Assembly (NCBI GenBank): GCA_002762705.1
Contig: PCVE01000124.1
Location: 1-38,443, forward strand
Origin: Candidatus Woesearchaeota archaeon CG11_big_fil_rev_8_21_14_0_20_43_8
GTDB lineage: Archaea > Nanobdellota > Nanobdellia > Woesearchaeales > CG08-08-20-14
Length of the DNA stretch: 38,443 bases
Direction of reading: 5' to 3'
Shown here: positions 1,219 through 38,443 of the stretch, one piece after another
How positions within the stretch are numbered: position 1 is the stretch's first letter
How the letters are laid out: each line of letters starts with the position of its first letter
Translations under genes and position numbers: made by a program
The notes under the pieces: generated by a model
Database searches by the model: none
Told to the model about the DNA's origin: nothing
What the model saw: only the letters and a program-made list of their open reading frames with translations

Positions 1219-2220
1219 TCAGAACAACATAGTCAGAAGATATCCAACAATACATCCAGCAGTGAGAAATGGCATCGCTGGATAGAACCTATCCTGCTTT
1301 CCGAATGTCAGCAACAGGAAAAGTGCTGCCGCGACACACAGAGGGATCAGCATGACGACAAAGAAATGTGGGAACGGAGCGCTGTTGAGCACGACACCTG
1401 CAAAGAACATCGGAAACCCGATGTCGCCACCGCCAAGTATGGCTGTACGCTCTGTCCTTGTCTCGACTATCTCACGCTTTGGTGCCGGAACTTTCTTTTT
1501 GCCTTTCTTGACAGCCCTGATCTTCATTGTTGCGGCTGGTTTTGTCACAGATACTTTGCTATATGGTATGGTCAGGCCCGCGAATACCTTTGAATCACGC
1601 TGGAACGTCGCAAGCTTCACCATATGCTTGCTCCACCAGACTGCGACCATGTCATATGCAGATATCACCACAAGAAGTATGAATGCAGACTTGAGGTCGA
1701 TTATCGGGACGAATATCGCGGATAGTCCGCCGTATATGAAAATCTCAGTTATATTGCTCATATAGACGCTTGGCCGGAATATCTTGAATGCAGCCAATAT
1801 GCCGGCGATGAGCAACACAAAAAGATCTGTCCCCCTGAATCCCAGGACCAATTTAAGCGACATGACTGGAAGGAGCCATGTGACAAATCTTCCGATAAAT
1901 GGCTTCAATGCTATAGTGAGACATAATAATACACTTAGGAAGAACCATGTCTTCCAGACCCTTATGCTACGAAAACGTATCAACACAAGAGCCAGGACTG
2001 TGCCTACGATGACTGCGCCGATGATATAGATATATGATTTGCTCGCGTCTATCTGCGGCCGTTCGATGTTCATAGGAAGCTCTTTGTAAAGTGTCTTCTC
2101 GACGCCGTCATCACCGACGACTCTTTTGTCGACGTATTGACTTATTATGGCAAGACCCATGATCTGGGATATCAGAAATACGACGACCAGTATCAATGTC
2201 ACTTTCAGATTATGCTTCAT
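1219..2220 (-). CDS. presenilin / signal-peptide-peptidase-like GxGD intramembrane aspartyl protease
   Basis: Multi-pass membrane ORF with SAYDMVAV (YD), LGGGDIGFP (GxGD) and YPAMPFL (PAL-like) motifs in the canonical order. The track start at 2271 is TTG. The first ATG (MKHNLKV...) is at 2220, with TATA-like catataaaaa ~25-30 nt upstream. Confidence 0.75.
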   Translation of the reverse strand: MKHNLKVTLILVVVFLISQIMGLAIISQYVDKRVVGDDGVEKTLYKELPMNIERPQIDASKSYIYIIGAVIVGTVLALVLIRFRSIRVWKTWFFLSVLLCLTIALKPFIGRFVTWLLPVMSLKLVLGFRGTDLFVLLIAGILAAFKIFRPSVYMSNITEIFIYGGLSAIFVPIIDLKSAFILLVVISAYDMVAVWWSKHMVKLATFQRDSKVFAGLTIPYSKVSVTKPAATMKIRAVKKGKKKVPAPKREIVETRTERTAILGGGDIGFPMFFAGVVLNSAPFPHFFVVMLIPLCVAAALFLLLTFGKQDRFYPAMPFLTAGCIVGYLLTMLF

Positions 2221-2263: not shown

Positions 2264-5200
2264 CTAGCCAAGTCTCAGCTTCGCTGTCAGGTCGTTGAAG
2301 ACCCTGAAGATGCCATCAGGTGTCGCGAGATTGTTGTCATCTCTTGAGATGATCATATATTCATTCGCACTGACAAGCGATGTCCTTTTCGTGTTGTAGC
2401 AGCACCCATATTCTGGGAAATTCATGCCACATTCTTCAGCAGGCACAGTCTCTTTGACATTCTTTATGTAAGAACATAGATTTGAAGCGAAACCGCTATA
2501 TCTGATGCCGGCGAAATACCGCACATGTTTTGTGGAAGATGGCGTAGCCAATGGATCTGGTATCGTTGTAGTTCCCGTTGGGGTATCTTCGACGGCGTAT
2601 CCATCAATGATGCCAAACACGCTTTTTGTTCCCCAGACTGAATAATACAAGTTGTCATAATGCTTCAGGTCAGTTGTGAACTTATAATATTTGCTTCCAT
2701 CATAGCCTTTTGATGTGTCTTTGTATGTGTTCGCAAGAGATTTCAAGCTGTCGAATCTGTCCGTCAATCCTTTTCCAAGAATTCCATCGTTGATCCCTTT
2801 GCCAGGACTGGAAGATGAAAAAGCAGTAAGCGTGTTGATGCTCGTACCAAGTGAATAACCCGTCTCATCAGGCATGATGATAGTCGTGTTCGTGCTATCA
2901 TCGAAATAGATCTTGAGTTCACCATTCGAACAGAGATCATAATCATGATCATTGTTCATCTGATTGTTGCAGATAGTCATTTTCTCGCCGAGTGTCGCGA
3001 GAAGACCGCCGTTCAATACATTGTCATCAATCTTAGCATTGAGCGATGTGCCAAGAACAGTCTTGAACTGGTTGTTCTCATAGTATTCAAGCACGCAGAC
3101 ATTGTTTATCTCTTTGCATGTGTCTTCCTGACTTGAACAATCCAATGCTTCTGCGACAGTCTTCATGGAATTGTATGATTTATATTCGAGGAAGTTCAGC
3201 GCATCCCTTGGCTCTGCGCAGAAAACTGAATAATAGTTGCTTGTGCCTTTTATCTTCATGAGTTGAGCGAGAACCACAGCTGTCCTTGTCGTCCAGGCGC
3301 CATTGACGCAGTATGCGTCGTCTTCATAGTCACCATCATGGACGCATTCTTTCGATACGCTTGAATAACAATCAGTGTCTTTCTCGCAGTAGTTGGTATC
3401 GATGCCGTCAAAACTCGATTTAAGTTTCTTCTCGACCCACTGGCCGTTCGAGCATGCCATCTTCTCTGACACATCTGAATAATCCTTGCTGCTGACGCAT
3501 GTCGCACCGTCCCAGCATTCGTCGGATGGACAGCAGCCGATCGGGGCGGTCGTATCGCCAAAGAATGTGCTAGTTGTCACTTTAGAGATATCGGTGACAA
3601 GATCCACGTTATAGAGCGCGACATCATCGATCTCGCAACCGCCGATACCATTCGAGATGGCTTTGCTTGAAGAGATGATTATCCGCACTTGTTTATTTTG
3701 ATTGATTGTTCCTGATGTCTTGAAGACCTGCCTGCCGTTTGTGCTATCATAAGATTGCGTGCCTGGGATGTTTGCGCCGGCCATGTCGATCAGGCTTATG
3801 CTTACTGAGTTCTGCTGGCAGCCAGTCTTGACGCTGGCTTCATAGTTTGCGCTAACAGGTATCGCGACTGGATCTCCGACAATGGCTGCATTGTCTGAGA
3901 GTGTGATTGAATTCGATAACTGATCATTCACTTTTATCCCGCCGACAATGGTCTTATAAGATGTTCCCGGGATAGTCCTTGAGTTTGCAACACGCCATCC
4001 GGGAAGCACACGATCGGTGACATAGATACGATATTTGCAAGATTCACCGAATGGATAACTATTTGTATAATACATCTGCCAGTTGAATTCAGATATGATT
4101 GGAGTAATCGGTGCAGTCACTGTGAATGAAGGTTTGAGATCTGAACCCGCACCGACACTCTTGTCTTTCGCAAGGATAGCATCTGGACCTGTTGGAGAGA
4201 CGACAAGATCAGCGTCGCTCTGTGGCGTGATCTTCCAACCATCTGTTTTATGTTTCGCTGCGCTAAGCAAATAAAGACCCAGTTTATCATCGCCGACCCA
4301 ATCCTGGGCTGTTGAAGGATTCTTGATGGTGAGATCTACACTACCAACTTCGCCGACGAACATCTCGACAGGAGCGTCCCAGTTGCTGCAGACAGCGTCA
4401 TAATTAAGAGAACGCACATCGAATTTATTCAGAGTAGATGACAGCCATAACACACCATTGTTTGACAACGGGATCTTTGAGATCGGAAGATTTGAATTTA
4501 TTCCAGCAAGAACAAGAACTGGGCTGCCTGTTGCGAAAAAATCGATAACATCAAAGTTGAGATCAGTATATCCGCCGAGATATACTTCCAGCTGGTCATT
4601 CTTGTTGCCATCAGTCATCAATGCATTCATCGAAACAGAATATATATGCCAGGAATAATCACTTTTTATCTCGTCTTCTCCTTCAACACAGAATTCTTGA
4701 TAAGAATCACATATATCTTTGACGACATCGCCAGAATTCTCACCACCAAGCTCTTTGTCTGATGAATCGCTCGGTGCATTGAATTTGCTGATGCTGTTCA
4801 AAGTGACTTTGGTATCATCTGTGAGAACTGCGATATTGAGCTTGACAAGATCACTTTCAAGTATTCTATCTGCTGTCGGCTGCATGTCAGATTTGTATTC
4901 GACAGCCCTGATAGATAAAGGCACATTGAACGAATCTTTGTTGAATGTATCGATTGTGCCAACACCACTTGGTATCTTGGTCTCGATGCGGTTCACAGTG
5001 ATGTATGTATCGGTTGATGCATACCATTTAGGCTGCTTCCATCCTTTTGCTGGGACAGGAACAAGCTTGCTCACATCAATATAATTCTTCAGCTGCAGAT
5101 TCAAGTGAGTCTCTGACTTGTATTTATCATCTGAACTGAATTCAAGCGGTCTTGCAATGAAAGGTACAGCAAGACCTGTAGAATCGCACATGAGGTTCAT

Positions 5201-5632
5201 GTAAACTATTGAATCGAGTGGAGTGCTGCTAGAGATGCCTTCAACTTCTTCAGCGATCTCAGCGATAGTAAATGTCCTATAGCACCGATATAATTCTTTT
5301 CCATTGGATGTATATGGCTCGCAGGTCGCGCCATTAGTTCCGCTGATCCCTGCCCATCCTAATTCAGAACCATCAAAACCGATGGTGATATCTGATTTGA
5401 CAAAAGATGAATCCCAATAACCGCATGCATCACCTGTCATCTTTACATAGAACTCAAATTCGACTGGCTGCCCTTCTATGACTTTATCGAGGGGCTTTGC
5501 CCAGGCATCACCGCTAAAATCAATATTTGATGGTCCATCCACAAATTCGTCACCGCAATTAGACAATGTAAATATCGCAACAAGCATCAGGCATAGCAAC
5601 AAGATTTTTTTTTGAAATATATTCGTTTTCAT
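2264..5632 (-). CDS. large (1122 aa) secreted, lipoprotein-like Cys-rich surface protein of unknown function
   Basis: Long uninterrupted ORF. The track N-terminus (to 5812) overlaps the upstream gene. The internal ATG at 5632 gives MKTNIFQKKILLLCLMLVAIFTLSNC, a signal peptide ending in a lipobox-like Cys. The C-terminal third is Cys-rich (GCCPSDECWDGATC, EYGCCYN). A mid-region stretch (NWDAPVEMFVGEVGSVDLTIKNPS...) looks like an Ig/CARDB/NBR1-type beta-sandwich. Confidence 0.7.
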   Translation of the reverse strand: MKTNIFQKKILLLCLMLVAIFTLSNCGDEFVDGPSNIDFSGDAWAKPLDKVIEGQPVEFEFYVKMTGDACGYWDSSFVKSDITIGFDGSELGWAGISGTNGATCEPYTSNGKELYRCYRTFTIAEIAEEVEGISSSTPLDSIVYMNLMCDSTGLAVPFIARPLEFSSDDKYKSETHLNLQLKNYIDVSKLVPVPAKGWKQPKWYASTDTYITVNRIETKIPSGVGTIDTFNKDSFNVPLSIRAVEYKSDMQPTADRILESDLVKLNIAVLTDDTKVTLNSISKFNAPSDSSDKELGGENSGDVVKDICDSYQEFCVEGEDEIKSDYSWHIYSVSMNALMTDGNKNDQLEVYLGGYTDLNFDVIDFFATGSPVLVLAGINSNLPISKIPLSNNGVLWLSSTLNKFDVRSLNYDAVCSNWDAPVEMFVGEVGSVDLTIKNPSTAQDWVGDDKLGLYLLSAAKHKTDGWKITPQSDADLVVSPTGPDAILAKDKSVGAGSDLKPSFTVTAPITPIISEFNWQMYYTNSYPFGESCKYRIYVTDRVLPGWRVANSRTIPGTSYKTIVGGIKVNDQLSNSITLSDNAAIVGDPVAIPVSANYEASVKTGCQQNSVSISLIDMAGANIPGTQSYDSTNGRQVFKTSGTINQNKQVRIIISSSKAISNGIGGCEIDDVALYNVDLVTDISKVTTSTFFGDTTAPIGCCPSDECWDGATCVSSKDYSDVSEKMACSNGQWVEKKLKSSFDGIDTNYCEKDTDCYSSVSKECVHDGDYEDDAYCVNGAWTTRTAVVLAQLMKIKGTSNYYSVFCAEPRDALNFLEYKSYNSMKTVAEALDCSSQEDTCKEINNVCVLEYYENNQFKTVLGTSLNAKIDDNVLNGGLLATLGEKMTICNNQMNNDHDYDLCSNGELKIYFDDSTNTTIIMPDETGYSLGTSINTLTAFSSSSPGKGINDGILGKGLTDRFDSLKSLANTYKDTSKGYDGSKYYKFTTDLKHYDNLYYSVWGTKSVFGIIDGYAVEDTPTGTTTIPDPLATPSSTKHVRYFAGIRYSGFASNLCSYIKNVKETVPAEECGMNFPEYGCCYNTKRTSLVSANEYMIISRDDNNLATPDGIFRVFNDLTAKLRLG

Positions 5633-5642
5633 CGTGATCATC

Positions 5643-7415
5643 TCATTTAAGTTCGAATGTCGGGTTCGGCGCAAGGTTTGCAGATGATGGCGCATATGAC
5701 TTGGACAAAGAATAATCATCATTATATTCCAACCATCTTCCATCGAATGAGCAGTAATATTGATTGTCCAGATCAGACGATGCAGGCGCATCATATACGC
5801 TTTCTGTGACAACAGTGCACATGGAATTAGGTGTCACAAGATCAGCCCCATAATCATCACGGATACCAGTGCCAGAAATTATCGGGATCCCAAAAGAATA
5901 TGATTTCTTAGGTGGAGCGTTTTTGATGACTGTTGATGTGAGTCCAAGATTGACGCTTGTGTCCTTCAGATACCCTGCACCAGAACATCCTTGCACTTGT
6001 CCGCGTACAACAAGCCAATCAGATACTTGCATATCAAAGACAGCATTCTTGTCTACAGGATATGCGATTCCATCAAAACATGCTCCGCCGTCCGCATAAT
6101 GTTCTTTGTTGCTATTGATCGGCACACTATATTTATCATTATATGTCATGTCACCAAAGCAGCAATTGCTCCCCGTCCATTTGAACGTGCTTCCGCCTGA
6201 TCCGCTAGCACCAGAAAGCTTATTCACACCTAATTGGTTGCAAGTAGTATAATATTTACTATTTGTCCTAAGTGTGTTCTCACTGATCCATTCATATTCA
6301 TCCTTACCTTCCACTTTAGCGCAGAAATACATATCACCATCACAATTTGTGAATTCGCCATCATCATAATTCAAACCACCGAGGCTTCCATCATTGTTTG
6401 GTCCTGGACCGCACTCTGCCCAGCGATTCATAGATGAGAATCTATCAGCGCCGTCTCCAAAGTAAAGATAAGAATAAGATTTAGTGCTTGACGAATATTT
6501 TTTTACTGTGCATTTGTTCGGCCTCACATACCAATTGCTGCCATCAGACAACATTTCAACTCCAAGGATATTGATAATCTCACCACCATAATCCTTTGCG
6601 TCCAGCCAACCGGTTCCTGCATCGTTTTCTTCATCCAGATTGCATATTGATTGGAATGCAAGCGGAGATGTAGAGATGAGATTGTTTGTCCTTGCCATCT
6701 GGCCTGATGCTTGATATGAAAACGGAGTATAATATCCGCTTTGATCATTTGAATTCATTGCCCATGATCCATGATCCGCAAGATCATCACCACAGCATTT
6801 CATAGTCGGATCCCAATCCCATGGAGATTTGCAATCTGCTTGACTCTTATCTCCATCAACCTGATTTTCATAGATGTCGTATGTGGCTTCTTTATTAGAA
6901 TTCTGGAATGGATTCGAACTTCCAGAAGAAGATTCATCCAACCATATCATCCCTGCTGCAGGGGTTTTTGATAAATAGCTTGCGACAGTACCACCATTGC
7001 CTGATACTATCGTCTTGAATGTGCTCTCTTCGATATAAAAAAGCCATTGCGGTGTTCCGCTTGAAGGGGGGATGTTCGGCAGTGCATTAGTAAAAGACAT
7101 AGTAGCTTTAGATAATGAAGGAACAGATAGTTTCATAGTCGCGACATAGCCGCTGATGACATTCATGCTGCTTGCACTATCTACCACAACAAGGTAAGTC
7201 TCATAGTTTTTATCGACTGCTGTTTTCATTGCATCTCTCATATCATATTCTAAGGAACCTGATGCAGCGTTGGAATCCTGGTTTGCATTGAACCATAAAG
7301 CGAAATTTACTCTTTCTGTCGAAGACATCATCGCAGCGCTCGCAAACGGGATAAGAAACATAAGAAGTATCATTGTGATTGGGATCATTCGTGATAAGAG
7401 TCCTGTTCTCTCCAT
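5643..7415 (-). CDS. secreted Cys-rich protein (590 aa) of unknown function
   Basis: ATG at 7415 is preceded by AAGAGGT. The N-terminal signal peptide is MERTGLLSRMIPITMILLMFLIPFASA. It carries vicinal-Cys motifs KCCGDDLADHG and NCCFGDM. The stop (5643-5645) lies 2-11 nt from the start of the next gene, so the two are probably co-transcribed. Confidence 0.7.
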   Translation of the reverse strand: MERTGLLSRMIPITMILLMFLIPFASAAMMSSTERVNFALWFNANQDSNAASGSLEYDMRDAMKTAVDKNYETYLVVVDSASSMNVISGYVATMKLSVPSLSKATMSFTNALPNIPPSSGTPQWLFYIEESTFKTIVSGNGGTVASYLSKTPAAGMIWLDESSSGSSNPFQNSNKEATYDIYENQVDGDKSQADCKSPWDWDPTMKCCGDDLADHGSWAMNSNDQSGYYTPFSYQASGQMARTNNLISTSPLAFQSICNLDEENDAGTGWLDAKDYGGEIINILGVEMLSDGSNWYVRPNKCTVKKYSSSTKSYSYLYFGDGADRFSSMNRWAECGPGPNNDGSLGGLNYDDGEFTNCDGDMYFCAKVEGKDEYEWISENTLRTNSKYYTTCNQLGVNKLSGASGSGGSTFKWTGSNCCFGDMTYNDKYSVPINSNKEHYADGGACFDGIAYPVDKNAVFDMQVSDWLVVRGQVQGCSGAGYLKDTSVNLGLTSTVIKNAPPKKSYSFGIPIISGTGIRDDYGADLVTPNSMCTVVTESVYDAPASSDLDNQYYCSFDGRWLEYNDDYSLSKSYAPSSANLAPNPTFELK

Positions 7416-7528
7416 TTTGTACCTCTTTTATTATATTAGTATAGGAATTCATTCTCATTACGTATATAAAAAGTTATCGGACCAAAAAGGTTAAATACGG
7501 ATTATGCAAATAATATTCATTGGATAAC

Positions 7529-8326
7529 ATGGGAGACCCAAAAACAGCATTACTTGCTTATATCAAGAAAGAGGAAAACAAAGGATTTGACGAGGCGAAG
7601 ATAAGAAAGACACTTGTCAACGCTGGCTATCCAGATAGTCTTGTCAATGAAGTCTATGACGATTACAATCATTCTAAGACTGCTCAGGTTGAAGTCAAGC
7701 AGCCTAAACCTGAGATCAAAGCTCCTGAGAACCACGCCCATATGGCAAAATGGTTCTGGGCGCTGATCGTGATTATCCTTATATTTGCCTGCGCTGCTGG
7801 CTTCTTATATTATCAATACTATTATAATGCGACTCCAACACAAGAGACTACGACAGATATCTCTGTCCAGGCCGCTGTCGTGCAGGAGACACTCAGCCTC
7901 GAAGACAAGAAGAATTTCTGCAGGGGCGTCAGTGCGACAAGCATCGAGACATGTGAGAAAGTCACAGATGAAGATGCTATGGCTGAATGCCTGTATTATG
8001 TGACGCTTTTCAAGATATTCGACGGAAGCCCCAGCATAACCTGTTATTCGAACGCATATCCAGCGTACAAATCCATATGCTTGTTGACAAAAAGAGGCGA
8101 GACAGAATACTGTGGAAGGCACTGTGAGACTGTCGCCGCGAATATCAACAAGGATTCTTCGCGATGCCCGATAGATGCAGAGAACTGCGATGGTGCGCTT
8201 GTTATCTGGAACTCGAAAGCAGGCACGATACAGAACGGCTGCAGTGCTCTGGAAGGCGAACACAGGATCGCGGCGTGCAAAGCGCTATCTACACAGAACA
8301 GAAATGTATGTGAAGAATTGGAATGA
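7529..8326 (+). CDS. single-pass membrane protein with a Cys-rich extracytoplasmic domain
   Basis: The track start at 7520 is TTG; the first ATG is at 7529. The layout is a soluble N-terminal ~85 aa, then a TM helix WFWALIVIILIFACAAGFLYY, then a ~150-aa domain with about 14 Cys. No family was recognised. Confidence 0.6.
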   Translation: MGDPKTALLAYIKKEENKGFDEAKIRKTLVNAGYPDSLVNEVYDDYNHSKTAQVEVKQPKPEIKAPENHAHMAKWFWALIVIILIFACAAGFLYYQYYYNATPTQETTTDISVQAAVVQETLSLEDKKNFCRGVSATSIETCEKVTDEDAMAECLYYVTLFKIFDGSPSITCYSNAYPAYKSICLLTKRGETEYCGRHCETVAANINKDSSRCPIDAENCDGALVIWNSKAGTIQNGCSALEGEHRIAACKALSTQNRNVCEELE

Positions 8327-8340
8327 ATTCTTTATGAAGG

Positions 8341-10725
8341 TCAAGGCAATGCTGCTGTCGCTTTGATTAAAGACCAAAGATCGGTGATGTCTTTCTTCCC
8401 AGCCAGACAGAAGTCATCATTGTTGTCAGTGCGCACAACAAAAGTCTTCGCGCCGAAATTCTGGTCGCAATTACAGAAAGATGCATAATCATTTTTCTTG
8501 TTACTATCGATCACAACAACACCATAATAATCCGGGCCGCCATTTACTTTAGATGCGACGAATTGATTGAGCTTTGAAGCGACCCAGCTGAATGCGAGAG
8601 ACCCATTATAGCATGCAGTCTGTATACCCATCGTTAATTTTCTTCGTTCGATGTCATATACCGCATTATACGATTCATCTATCAAGGCATACAGGCTATC
8701 AGCGAGCCGGTTGAACTCAGAATTTGGATTCGAGAGTACTGTCGATTCAGGATAATTCAAAGCGACGAAGACCACATTGAGTTTTTTCTTTGAAGAACCT
8801 GATGGCGAAATCACCATCTGTAACGGACCCTGTTCAGTCATATCATCGCACTGCACTGCGCTTGGGTATCCGCAGACTGTCCCTGAACCAGTTTTCTGCT
8901 GGTCGATCGCAAATTTGATGTCCTGATAATCTTCTAAAGAGCCATCAGACGCAGTCACCCTCATCACCGGACCTCCTTTGCAGCAATCTTTCTGCTCGAG
9001 CTCATAACCGCGGGCTTCATCGAACTTGGTGTTCACATTCCGTCCATCGATGCTGAATTCGACTTCGTCTTCATCCGGATCTATCGCCTGCAGGACATAA
9101 CGATAGATATAATCAGTTGACGGTGATTCCTTGAACACATCCTTAATCCACATGCTCCTTGTCTCGTGATATAGATCGCAACCATTCATAGTGGTGCCTG
9201 CTGCACCCGGGGTAGTGCCAGTTCCAGTGCCAGCCACGCCAGGACCGACACTTGGAGATGTAACTGCCATAGGAACATAACCAGTCGGCCAAGTGATCGG
9301 CGGACAAGGGTTCTTTGTGGCTTTAATAATGTCAGCATTGATATGCGTGCTTGTGTCTTTTGGCATGAAGATCACTGCGCGCTGCCTGCCGTCTTTATCT
9401 TCTCTGTGGAATTCGATTATGTTTCCATTCGTCGTTGTCCCAGAGATATGGAACTGAAGACCTGTGAAACTACTTCCACCTACAGGATCAAGCCATATCT
9501 GCTCGAACGCATCATCAGTCGTCGTCGATGCGACAATGCTTCCGTCTATCCCTTTTCCCCATTGCTTGCCATTCATTTCATCCAACTCAGAGACATAATA
9601 CAATGCAGGCGCTCGGTTCTGTCTCACGAAACGCCAGACATACGGCTTGTTTCCGACTGTGGATTTCTTGTCGACAACCTCGATGATATCATCGAAATAA
9701 TATCCAGCAATCTCGCCATCAGCATAAGGCTCTTCTCCTTCCAAATAGCGATCCTCGCCATCAGCGACGCTCACAGTGGCGCTATCCTTTCCGAGCAGAT
9801 AGCGTCCTGACGAATCGTCGTCATCCTGATTGAGATAAAGAGGCCCATCGATCGTGATATTGAAAGCAGGATCCATAGTCTCACGTTTTATCATCTCGAT
9901 GATTGCATCATATAATCTTTTTAGACGGACATTCACTTTGTATGTGAACTTATCGAAACGGACTTTATCATTCCCATCTGAAAATTCGACAGGATAATCC
10001 AAATACACACGGAAATCGTTCTTTGTCAGAAGCACAGAGACATTCATCGCAAGATCAGAGGTCACACCCATCTCTTTGATATCATATGTATGCGACAATT
10101 GCTTGTAATCGCCAAGACAGGCACCCATGTTGTTCATGATATATGCTTTCAGTTTCCCTTCGATCGAACCAGCGCCGTCTTTCTCATATAGATGAGGGAC
10201 GATGACACGGCCAAACACAGGAGAATCGAATGATAGTTCACCAAGAGTCAGTCCGCCACTGTTGTCAAGATCCTTGTATGGGAACTTCTTCCACGGATAG
10301 TCTGGCACATTTGGACATGACGAGAAATCATCTGTGCAGCCACCCATCATGCTTCTTGTGATCCAGTATGGAACCATGCATTCACTTTTTCCGCAGGAAT
10401 CATAATACACAAAATAGACCCCTTCATAATTATCAGTGAGATCATCATCTATCCCACCTTGTTCCTTATAGATATAACCGCCTTGTTTCCCGAACAGTTC
10501 AAGGGCCTTATCAGTCATGTCTTCGAAACATGATTGTATGAAAGACTGGATCATTGTCTTATCGATCGCGCTTTTCGCGGTCTCGACAGGTGTCACCGCA
10601 TCCTTCCCTTCAGTCTTGCCATGTGTAGAGACATAGATGAAGAAACCTATACCGAGCAGAAAAAAGACTCCGACTATGATGAAAAAAGTCATCTGGGCTT
10701 TTTTTCCTTGATGTTTCATATACAT
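8341..10725 (-). CDS. large (794 aa) N-terminally anchored extracellular protein, possibly with a pilin-like signal and a cadherin/He_PIG-like Ig domain
   Basis: The track start at 10743 is TTG; ATGs occur at 10725 and 10719. The N-terminus MYMKHQGKKAQMTFFIIVGVFFLLGIGFFIYV is a basic stretch followed by a hydrophobic helix. The stretch YRYVLQAIDPDEDEVEFSIDG...MRVTASDGSLEDYQDIKFAI resembles cadherin-like Ig repeats. A CC pair occurs in QKDCCKGG. Confidence 0.7.
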   Translation of the reverse strand: MYMKHQGKKAQMTFFIIVGVFFLLGIGFFIYVSTHGKTEGKDAVTPVETAKSAIDKTMIQSFIQSCFEDMTDKALELFGKQGGYIYKEQGGIDDDLTDNYEGVYFVYYDSCGKSECMVPYWITRSMMGGCTDDFSSCPNVPDYPWKKFPYKDLDNSGGLTLGELSFDSPVFGRVIVPHLYEKDGAGSIEGKLKAYIMNNMGACLGDYKQLSHTYDIKEMGVTSDLAMNVSVLLTKNDFRVYLDYPVEFSDGNDKVRFDKFTYKVNVRLKRLYDAIIEMIKRETMDPAFNITIDGPLYLNQDDDDSSGRYLLGKDSATVSVADGEDRYLEGEEPYADGEIAGYYFDDIIEVVDKKSTVGNKPYVWRFVRQNRAPALYYVSELDEMNGKQWGKGIDGSIVASTTTDDAFEQIWLDPVGGSSFTGLQFHISGTTTNGNIIEFHREDKDGRQRAVIFMPKDTSTHINADIIKATKNPCPPITWPTGYVPMAVTSPSVGPGVAGTGTGTTPGAAGTTMNGCDLYHETRSMWIKDVFKESPSTDYIYRYVLQAIDPDEDEVEFSIDGRNVNTKFDEARGYELEQKDCCKGGPVMRVTASDGSLEDYQDIKFAIDQQKTGSGTVCGYPSAVQCDDMTEQGPLQMVISPSGSSKKKLNVVFVALNYPESTVLSNPNSEFNRLADSLYALIDESYNAVYDIERRKLTMGIQTACYNGSLAFSWVASKLNQFVASKVNGGPDYYGVVVIDSNKKNDYASFCNCDQNFGAKTFVVRTDNNDDFCLAGKKDITDLWSLIKATAALP

Positions 10726-37277: not shown

Positions 37278-38443
37278 TCAATGAAAAAGAAATTCATTCA
37301 CAAAAGAAAAAAATCGTTTGATTAATGGGACATACAGCACCACTTTATCCTGGCACATGCGATCCACACATGCACTGCTCAGGCATTCAAAACCATCTTG
37401 GCATGATTCACCATTGTTTTTTTGATTGATGATATCTTTGATATTGCTGCAATATGATTTCACACCGATCTGATCTATCCTCTGACCGATAGAATAACAA
37501 TGCCCATCTATGTCTTCGCATCCGCTGCATTTTGTCTCAACAACCTGTTCTGGTTGCGCTGCCGGTTGTTCGATAGACACAGACGTTGTCTCCTTTATTT
37601 CTTGCTTGACTGGTTCTGTCGTCTTTGTCTCAGGAACTTTTACAATGGGATCACTTTTATCGACTACCGGGGCTTTGGTCTCTTCTTCAATGATCGTCGG
37701 GGATGACCTGCACCCAGAAGAAGAAGAGTCACAGCCATATTCACATTTCTCATATATCCATTTATTATTCACGCATTTTGTGGTATAATCACCATAACAT
37801 AAAGTTTTATCTGAACTGCACATCACAGCAGTCTCTACTTCTTCGCATGCCCCATTCTTGCATTCTCCGTTGCATTGAAATATCTTGTATATCGCTTTTC
37901 CATTCTCACAGATTGCTTCTGAGACTTTATTATGACTTTCACATACATCTTTTAGGGTACGTCCATCCTCATCCACAACAGTGGTCTGTATAGACAGGTT
38001 CTTTGAATCGGGATCCACACAAGTCGGCTCTTCGGCTATGATGCATCTTCCATCGATACATTTGTAATCACATCGCTTGTATTTCTCAGAGCCGATATTT
38101 TTTCTGCATACTCTCTCAAGCAACATCTCTCTTGGCTGGCATTCATCATAGAACTGTTTTCCCCATTCGTCTATTATATATGATTTTGTGAAGAAATCCT
38201 CACCATCCATATCGACGCAAGCGATCGGTTCGACAACTGGGGCATCTACACATTTCCCTTCTATGCATTTATAATCGCAATAGAATCTTTTCTCAGATAC
38301 ATACGCGCCTTCGCATCCCATTTCTACAAGCGTATGGTAATCAGCGCAATAATCATTATGCGTCGTGCCATTGACATCAGTGACATAAGAAGCAAGACCA
38401 TAATTGGATCCATCATTATCTGTGCATGTCGCACTTACAGAAA
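37278..38443 (-). CDS. modular Cys-rich extracellular protein, 5'-truncated by the window edge
   Basis: I translated codons upstream of the track Met (38321) by hand. The frame stays open to position 38443 (...SVSATCTDNDGSNYGLASYVTDVNGTTHNDYCADYHTLVE-MGCEG...). The protein has repeated ~60-aa modules ending C-x-Y/G-x-C-x2-G-x-C, then a P/E/T/K/V-rich linker and a final Cys-rich module. Confidence 0.65.
   Translation of the reverse strand, partial: SVSATCTDNDGSNYGLASYVTDVNGTTHNDYCADYHTLVEMGCEGAYVSEKRFYCDYKCIEGKCVDAPVVEPIACVDMDGEDFFTKSYIIDEWGKQFYDECQPREMLLERVCRKNIGSEKYKRCDYKCIDGRCIIAEEPTCVDPDSKNLSIQTTVVDEDGRTLKDVCESHNKVSEAICENGKAIYKIFQCNGECKNGACEEVETAVMCSSDKTLCYGDYTTKCVNNKWIYEKCEYGCDSSSSGCRSSPTIIEEETKAPVVDKSDPIVKVPETKTTEPVKQEIKETTSVSIEQPAAQPEQVVETKCSGCEDIDGHCYSIGQRIDQIGVKSYCSNIKDIINQKNNGESCQDGFECLSSACVDRMCQDKVVLYVPLIKRFFSFVNEFLFH

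Follow-up and report, generated by a model that had tools for sequence, protein, structure and literature searches.

In archaea, type IV pilus-like systems comprise accessory or minor subunits, the Epd pili of Methanococcus maripaludis being one example, and archaeal pilins are usually N-glycosylated. DPANN archaea depend on cell contact, yet a role has been assigned to very few of the proteins on their surface. Hamm et al. reportedly described giant and SPEARE-type surface proteins in this group in 2019. We analyzed a stretch of 38,443 nucleotides (hereafter, the window), positions 1 to 38,443 of the forward strand of contig PCVE01000124.1 (NCBI GenBank assembly GCA_002762705.1), from Candidatus Woesearchaeota archaeon CG11_big_fil_rev_8_21_14_0_20_43_8. 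Our subject is a pair of adjacent genes, here called A and B, to which an earlier note made from the sequence had drawn attention. With moderate confidence, we propose that A and B encode the halves of a split, secreted, disulfide-rich surface protein, in which A re-associates with a C-terminal module of B, and that this protein is glycan-free and works with the pilin-like product of a neighboring gene, C.

The locus shares with archaeal type IV pilus-like systems a protein with a prepilin-like N terminus (C) and the clustering of its gene with those of secreted proteins. It differs from them in that the signals of A and B are Sec-type rather than class III and in that C is far larger than a pilin; unlike archaeal pilins, A and B also avoid N-glycosylation sequons. 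Like the giant and SPEARE-type proteins, A and B are large, exported, and lineage-specific, and are presumed to act in the cell-cell contact of small symbiotic archaea, but they are much smaller, Cys-rich, devoid of a transmembrane tail or ATPase, and without sequence relation to that group. In B and its homolog, as in bacterial-type lipoproteins, the signal opens with a basic n-region, continues with a hydrophobic core, and closes with a conserved Cys, after which come acidic residues; the Asn at position -1 of B, however, is noncanonical. A and B can further be compared with the single-chain proteins of their own family, which we term canonical. These share the module (B 700-1121 aligns with residues 746-1096 of L008_1097, E 2e-30), the CCGDD and pre-module regions that here reside in A, and the family of the pilin-like partner, C. 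They differ in that here two genes are involved and in that B has a new N-region of 670 residues and a lipobox-like signal.

Genes A and B and the architecture of their family

The features of the pair are as follows.

5643 to 7415, minus strand: gene A, 590 residues, ATG start
2264 to 5632, minus strand: gene B, 1122 residues, ATG start (MKTN...), inside the long open reading frame 2264-5812
5636 to 5645, minus strand: A-B junction, TGA stop plus Shine-Dalgarno-like GAGATGATC
7421 to 7470, minus strand: putative promoter and ribosome-binding site of the pair, from motif inspection only
A residues 1-27: signal peptide, MERTGLLSR, then the core MIPITMILLMFLIPF (15 residues), then ASA/A; Sec-type, matching the signal peptidase I pattern
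A residues 28-167: N-region, specific to the A type
A residues 168-354: CCGDD region, profile match
A residues 329-576 (5688 to 6431, minus strand): pre-module X region (WTGxxCC...YYCxxxxW), profile match
B residues 27-694: N-region, specific to the B type, with 10 Cys and no detectable domain
B residues 695-1122 (2267 to 3550, minus strand): C-terminal module

A phmmer search with B against 1.84 billion representative sequences returned 351 matches at E ≤ 1e-3 and 111 at E ≤ 1e-10, which puts the size of the family at at least 351 clusters at 50% identity. Only one of them, P0005 (1091 residues, 32% identity, E 6e-67), spans most of B; all others cover only residues ~695-925 and beyond. The module is found in proteins of 200 to 1900 residues, where its start position varies and its end always reaches the C terminus. 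Sixty-six aligned full modules share a CCxxxxCWxGxxC start, C-x2-G-x-W, WTSRT, and about 15 conserved Cys, and the columns conserved in 80 to 100% of them correspond to C700, C701, C706, W707, G709, C712, C727, G730, W732, C749, C755, C763, C775, G778, W780, R783, and T784 of B. The module closes with W/F-x-D-L-T-x-K-L-R-L (FNDLTAKLRLG in B), with K1118 conserved in 98% and R1120 in 100%, and this terminal motif lies within the last 25 residues in 78 of 149 matches. As a whole, the module alignment is too divergent for pattern scanning. An AlphaFold2 (AF2) model built from a 20-sequence alignment (predicted local distance difference test [pLDDT] score, 71.5; predicted template modeling score, 0.77) predicts an alpha/beta domain preceded by some 90 residues that form small hairpins rich in disulfides.

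The earlier note had called both proteins orphans, a description that no longer fits: the module of B occurs in 351 representative clusters, and homology to A is found toward the N terminus of the same proteins. No homology to a described S-layer, adhesin, or enzyme family was found in Pfam, NCBIfam, PHROGs, or PDB, and Foldseek gave no match for the module among the solved structures of PDB or the predicted viral structures of BFVD. Neither A nor B, whether whole or in seven pieces, matched Pfam, NCBIfam, or PHROGs; among PDB sequences, neither protein by itself nor the profile of the module (best E 0.9) found anything but noise. Word-indexed homolog searches with B, A, and the A-type alignment returned the query itself or nothing, low-complexity words probably having limited their sensitivity. 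In the literature searched, we found no description of the family, nor of sequon avoidance in archaeal surface proteins. The family is thus widespread yet without a Pfam entry, a PDB match, or a description in that literature.

In a consensus of 48 proteins, the canonical single chain consists of a signal peptide, CCGDDxxDCG, a variable middle, the WTGxxCC...YYCxxxxW segment, some 25 residues, and the C-terminal CCxxxxCWxG module of ~400 residues. The middles differ from member to member and comprise LamG/pentaxin, He_PIG, PKD, SdrD_B, CBM_4_9, Hint, and similar domains. Gene A carries the front parts of this chain. A profile of the pre-module region, made from the 220 residues directly upstream of the module in 110 members with A, B, and P0005 excluded, matches A 329-576 with 50.4 bits (E 3.9e-15; hhalign probability, 97.4%) and the A homolog at a second locus, L005, with 52.5 bits, whereas shuffled versions of A (n = 200) reached at most ~6 bits. 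A second profile, of the CCGDD region and built from the 77 of 148 members that have the motif, matches A 168-354 (33.1 bits, E 8.5e-10). No match to the pre-module profile was obtained with the N-regions of the B type (hhalign, 0.2%). Furthermore, BLASTP places A collinear with residues 656-774 of P0006, and phmmer with the --max option aligns A weakly but collinearly with the upstream parts of homologs of B, reversed-sequence controls scoring lower; in plain phmmer searches of A against these homologs, no match survived the bias filter.

A terminates about 30 residues past YYCSFDGRW, and the module of B opens at CC700/701. Because A ends after YYCxxxxW and the module of B starts at this Cys pair, A and residues 695-1122 of B would together make up one canonical protein. 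What separates the two halves is a stop codon, followed by a new signal peptide and ~670 residues known only from B and P0005. With the CCGDD and X regions on A and the module on B, the canonical location of all three on the same polypeptide is not found here, and A and B are, as judged from their sequences, a split variant of one family in which fused forms are far commoner than split ones. The earlier note had correctly located the vicinal-Cys motifs of the pair, KCCGDD (A 207/208), NCCFGD (A 418/419), GCCPSDECWDG (B 700/701), and GCCYN (B 1077/1078), but it had read them as a likeness between the proteins, whereas they belong to separate stretches that follow one another in a single ancestral architecture. 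Conservation across the family marks three of the four as hallmarks; by count, such pairs are weakly above chance (2 against 0.35 expected in A, P = 0.04; 2 against 0.83 in B, P = 0.2). We also considered A and B as paralogs of each other and rejected this idea, the two having in common only one weak segment (E 0.002).

The split is conserved at L005, where the gene order comprises a 531-residue homolog of C (L005_C531; E 2.6e-54), a 636-residue homolog of A (28% identity, E 6e-36) whose gene overlaps that of P0005 by 8 nucleotides, P0005 itself as the homolog of B, and a presenilin/signal peptide peptidase (SPP)-type protease with 57% identity to the one in the window. All 15 Cys of A are kept in its L005 homolog. 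Outside this block of C, A, B, and protease genes, the surroundings of the two loci differ. The synteny check proposed in the earlier note therefore came out positively, the pair being kept in a related genome with the same flanking genes. Since both open reading frames are intact and conserved in L005 at 28 to 32% identity, we conclude that A and B are real genes. The window is archaeal, with an archaeal signal recognition particle RNA present, and its population occurs, nearly clonally, in many groundwater and aquifer metagenomes, the locus being identical across several groundwater samples. With one single-nucleotide polymorphism in 14 kb of contig pieces, the population is so close to clonal that no selection signal can be read from its variation.

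We place the start of B at ATG 5632 (codon 5632-5630; MKTNIFQKK...), an alternative ATG at 5641 (1125 residues) being less likely. The 1122-residue form is supported by the alignment of the distant homolog P0005, which begins exactly at its N terminus, and by a Shine-Dalgarno-like GAGATGATC, read directly from the sequence at 5644-5636, which precedes the ATG, overlaps the stop codon of A, and deviates at one base from the usual consensus, GAGGTGATC. The far-upstream TTG start of the open reading frame 2264-5812 overlaps A and was rejected as not credible. Public annotations (P0003; L001-L004) start B at Met16 (1107 residues), 15 residues late, so that the basic n-region of its signal is lost. 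A ends with TGA at 5645-5643, and the gap between the genes is 1 or 10 nucleotides, depending on the start of B; the operon-like arrangement claimed in the earlier note stands, while its spacing of 2 to 11 nucleotides was off by one. The junction leaves no room for a promoter before B. The genes are in different reading frames, so read-through cannot fuse A with B, and a fusion by read-through or frameshift, for which 670 residues and a signal peptide would moreover lie in between, was rejected. Upstream of A, a TATA-like TTTATATA is found at 7470-7463, about 50 nucleotides before its ATG, and a Shine-Dalgarno-like AGAGGT at 7426-7421.

Export signals, sequons, and cysteine parity

Export signals were judged by hand, from hydrophobic windows above 1.6 and from reading of motifs. 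A and B each have exactly one hydrophobic segment, which is N-terminal and ends in ASA/A in A and in LSN-C26 in B, as the earlier note had proposed. The signal of B begins with MKTNIFQKK, which is followed by the hydrophobic core, the LSN-C26 end, and acidic residues; the column of Cys26 is invariant in comparison with the L005 homolog, where the sequence is LGG-C23. The lipobox consensus is [LVI][ASTVI][GAS]C. Both proteins are acidic, with 146 Asp and Glu against 95 Lys and Arg in B and 69 against 41 in A, and their Cys content is 2.5 to 2.8%. Consistent with the earlier note, they lack a catalytic signature: HExxH is absent from A and B, His is rare, and the sole G-x-S-x-G is GYSLG at B 925.

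Sequons for N-glycosylation (N-X-S/T) are nearly missing from the pair. Shuffled sequences lead one to expect 7.6 in A and 12.6 in B, but A has none and B a single one (P < 0.0005 each); despite ~30% identity the same is seen in L005, with 0 against 6.1 in the A homolog and 1 against 7.4 in the B homolog. Sequons at or above the expected frequency, the mark by which archaeal N-glycoproteins (S-layer proteins, pilins, and most DPANN surface proteins) can be recognized, are thus not found in A or B. Twenty-four other proteins of the window are at expectation, including C (3 against 4.7) and D, the product of a gene between C and A (2 against 2.0), and the pilin-like neighbor in L005 is, if anything, enriched (6 against 3.2). 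The control patterns [ST]-X-N, N-X-X-[ST], N-[ST], D-X-[ST], and Q-X-[ST] are all at or above expectation. Among 149 family members (P0005-P0153), the ratio of observed to expected sequons ranges from 0 to 2.7, being below 0.3 in 29 and above 1.5 in 13; strongly depleted examples are P0145 (1 against 25 expected) and P0040 (2 against 19). On a module tree of 66 members, the 12 depleted ones are scattered, with 10 changes and clustering no greater than for shuffled labels, so glycosylation status appears to flip repeatedly within the family. For A and B, the pattern appears best explained by selection specifically against their N-glycosylation. Such a purge implies exposure to an oligosaccharyltransferase and thereby lends independent support to export.

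The number of Cys in the module is odd (13, 15, 17, or 19) in 65 of 65 members, from which it follows that one module Cys is free or bonded outside the module. Counts are likewise odd in A (15) and its L005 homolog (21), and the module has 19 in both B and its L005 counterpart; those of the N-region are even (10 in B, 8 in L005 B). This parity suggests an interchain disulfide between A and B in the split form.

A proposed re-associating pair and the alternatives

The proposed split protein would work as follows. A and B would be made from one transcript that starts at the promoter upstream of A, with coupled translation, and both products would be exported via Sec. B would be tethered through its N-terminal Cys or through an uncleaved signal anchor, its N-region serving as a stalk. 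The X region of A would then rejoin the module of B and rebuild the canonical unit, possibly locked by one interchain disulfide. Together with the pilin-like C, this glycan-free complex would form part of a surface attachment or recognition apparatus; its role is probably attachment. A bolder version, in which the odd Cys make A and B a covalent heterodimer that forms the glycan-free recognition head of an undescribed DPANN attachment apparatus with pilin-like proteins, is one we regard as doubtful. If it were true, the sequons would have been purged because an N-glycan would block binding of a ligand or host, or folding of the disulfide knot.

Should A and B indeed re-associate, the natural split tells which parts of the canonical protein must interact. 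The near-total avoidance of sequons and the invariably odd module Cys suggest that a binding surface free of glycans is exposed and that a thiol is reactive or forms a bridge. Of the new points, these two features lend themselves best to testing.

Several observations weigh against the proposal. The locus was found in no RNA run, the window contains no AglB gene, and the Asn at -1 makes the L-S-N-C26 of B a noncanonical lipobox. The split type is known from only two populations: two metagenome scans, with the B-type and A-type alignments, found none further; a contig scan of genomes with the alignment of B and P0005 found one locus, the canonical L006, and no further split; and a profile search likewise yielded no further split-type locus. 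On the structural side, the single-sequence AF2 model of A is uninformative (pLDDT, 33.6), and Foldseek found no relative of the modeled module in PDB (best E 0.07; template modeling scores, 0.2 to 0.38) or in BFVD (best E 0.03), so that structure gives no functional analogy. In canonical members, the Cys count of the parts upstream of the module is odd in 33 and even in 19 under crude trimming of signal peptides, and this mixed parity leaves the A-B disulfide hypothetical. A and B may associate, and what argues for this is gene-fusion logic together with Cys parity.

Of the other explanations, the one that survives best takes A and B as independent paralog remnants, each acting alone and adjacent as a result of tandem duplication, with A being a truncated member minus its module and B a module-bearing lipoprotein with a different N-region. 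Architectures do vary widely in the family, and some short members (P0014, P0016) consist of hardly anything but the module, which implies that the module can work without an X region in cis; the weakness of the one segment shared by A and B (E 0.002) would suit this explanation. However, the halves are exactly complementary and in canonical order, B lacking the X region; the tight coupling (a gap of 1 to 10 nucleotides, and an overlap of 8 in L005) and the pairing itself survive at ~30% identity; and the sequon purge and odd Cys parity are common to both partners. We therefore regard independent remnants as unlikely.

As large, acidic, exported proteins, one of them possibly membrane-tethered, A and B might instead be main cell-wall proteins, of an S-layer or sheath, rather than a device for adhesion or recognition, and little is known of S-layer proteins in these lineages. 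In archaea, S-layer proteins typically contain few Cys and are N-glycosylated, and a Cys content of 2.5 to 2.8% with essentially no sequons is unlike them. Since, in addition, no S-layer domain of Pfam or NCBIfam was matched, and the canonical relatives have lectin and Ig domains and are found in operons with pilin-like and giant adhesin-like proteins, we consider a main cell-wall role improbable.

Another alternative sees the module as an extracellular enzyme or substrate-binding domain of new fold and the pair as serving nutrient acquisition, for instance, the scavenging of polymers. CBM_4_9, LamG, or beta-helix/NosD domains do occur in some relatives, and the predicted alpha/beta core of the module is without a structural relative. 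The conserved columns, however, consist of Cys, Gly, Trp, Asn, Arg, Lys, and Thr; His is not among them, nor do they form a Ser/Asp/His-like or metal-site pattern, and no catalytic family was matched in Pfam, NCBIfam, PHROGs, or PDB, which makes nutrient acquisition quite improbable. Finally, the split might be mere decay, with a stop or frameshift having disrupted a canonical gene that is now being lost. This would fit the preponderance of fused forms but is hardly credible given the ~670 extra residues and the separate signal peptide between the homologous parts, two intact open reading frames, the retention of every Cys of A in a relative of ~30% identity, and a locus identical in several groundwater samples.

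Neighboring genes and the canonical operon

The following features adjoin the pair or mark the position of the canonical genes elsewhere.

8341 to 10725, minus strand: gene C, 794 residues, class III (prepilin-like) N terminus KKA/QMTFFIIVG
1219 to 2220, minus strand: presenilin/SPP-type intramembrane aspartyl protease, 333 residues, with YD, GGGD, and PAMP intact
L007 1144-1671; L008 6339-6950; L009 171-782; L010 255-863: sites where a canonical fused family member directly follows the RNase P p30 gene

The proposal of a surface-protein island made in the earlier note is upheld by C, which is pilin-like and whose homolog also flanks the pair in L005. At the N termini of C and its homologs, [KR]-[AGS]-Q precedes a hydrophobic helix, as in substrates of prepilin peptidase, and C is homologous to the pilin-like second gene, of ~390 residues, of the canonical operons (L008_392, E 1.5e-35; L006_387, E 4.6e-15). 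A homology of C to the Cys-rich family was considered and rejected. The window contains no gene for a pilus ATPase, a platform protein, or a prepilin peptidase.

The canonical operon, found in L006 and L008 and, as its beginning only, in L009 and L010, consists, in this order, of the fused Cys-rich gene, the pilin-like gene, and a giant gene of ~1700 residues. At the locus described here, the pilin-like gene has twice the length and is found upstream, not downstream, neither the giant gene nor an RNase P p30 gene adjoins the pair, and the presenilin-type protease follows; the giant and rpp30 genes are absent from the whole window, and the canonical gene order is not found there. In four independent contigs, L007-L010, the canonical Cys-rich gene lies just downstream of the gene for RNase P p30 (PF01876), a site that is a strikingly constant address for a fast-evolving surface-protein operon. 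The contig of L006 (CAYUUH010000014.1), which carries the canonical operon, is filed under a metagenome-assembled genome named 'uncultured Methanosarcinales archaeon'; either the family extends beyond DPANN or the contig was misbinned.

The presenilin/SPP-type protease gene of the window has its own TATAAAAA; in both genomes, such a gene immediately follows the B-type gene on the downstream side (13281-14264 in L005). The protease may, we conjecture, process signal or anchor segments of the proteins of the cluster. Protein D (7520-8326, plus strand, 268 residues) has a cytoplasmic head, one transmembrane helix (residues ~72-94), and an ectodomain with 13 Cys; its gene is inserted on the opposite strand between C and A in the window and is absent at that site in L005. 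At the far end of the window, a reading frame on the minus strand (37278-38441) that runs off the window end encodes another Cys-rich protein (8.6% Cys), whose repeats of ~50 residues, of the form CxDxDG...C...C.Y.C..G.C, are followed by a linker rich in Pro, Glu, and Thr and by a C-terminal tail that is hydrophobic. No Pfam family matches this protein, which is unrelated to A and B at the level of BLAST and is probably a further surface protein.

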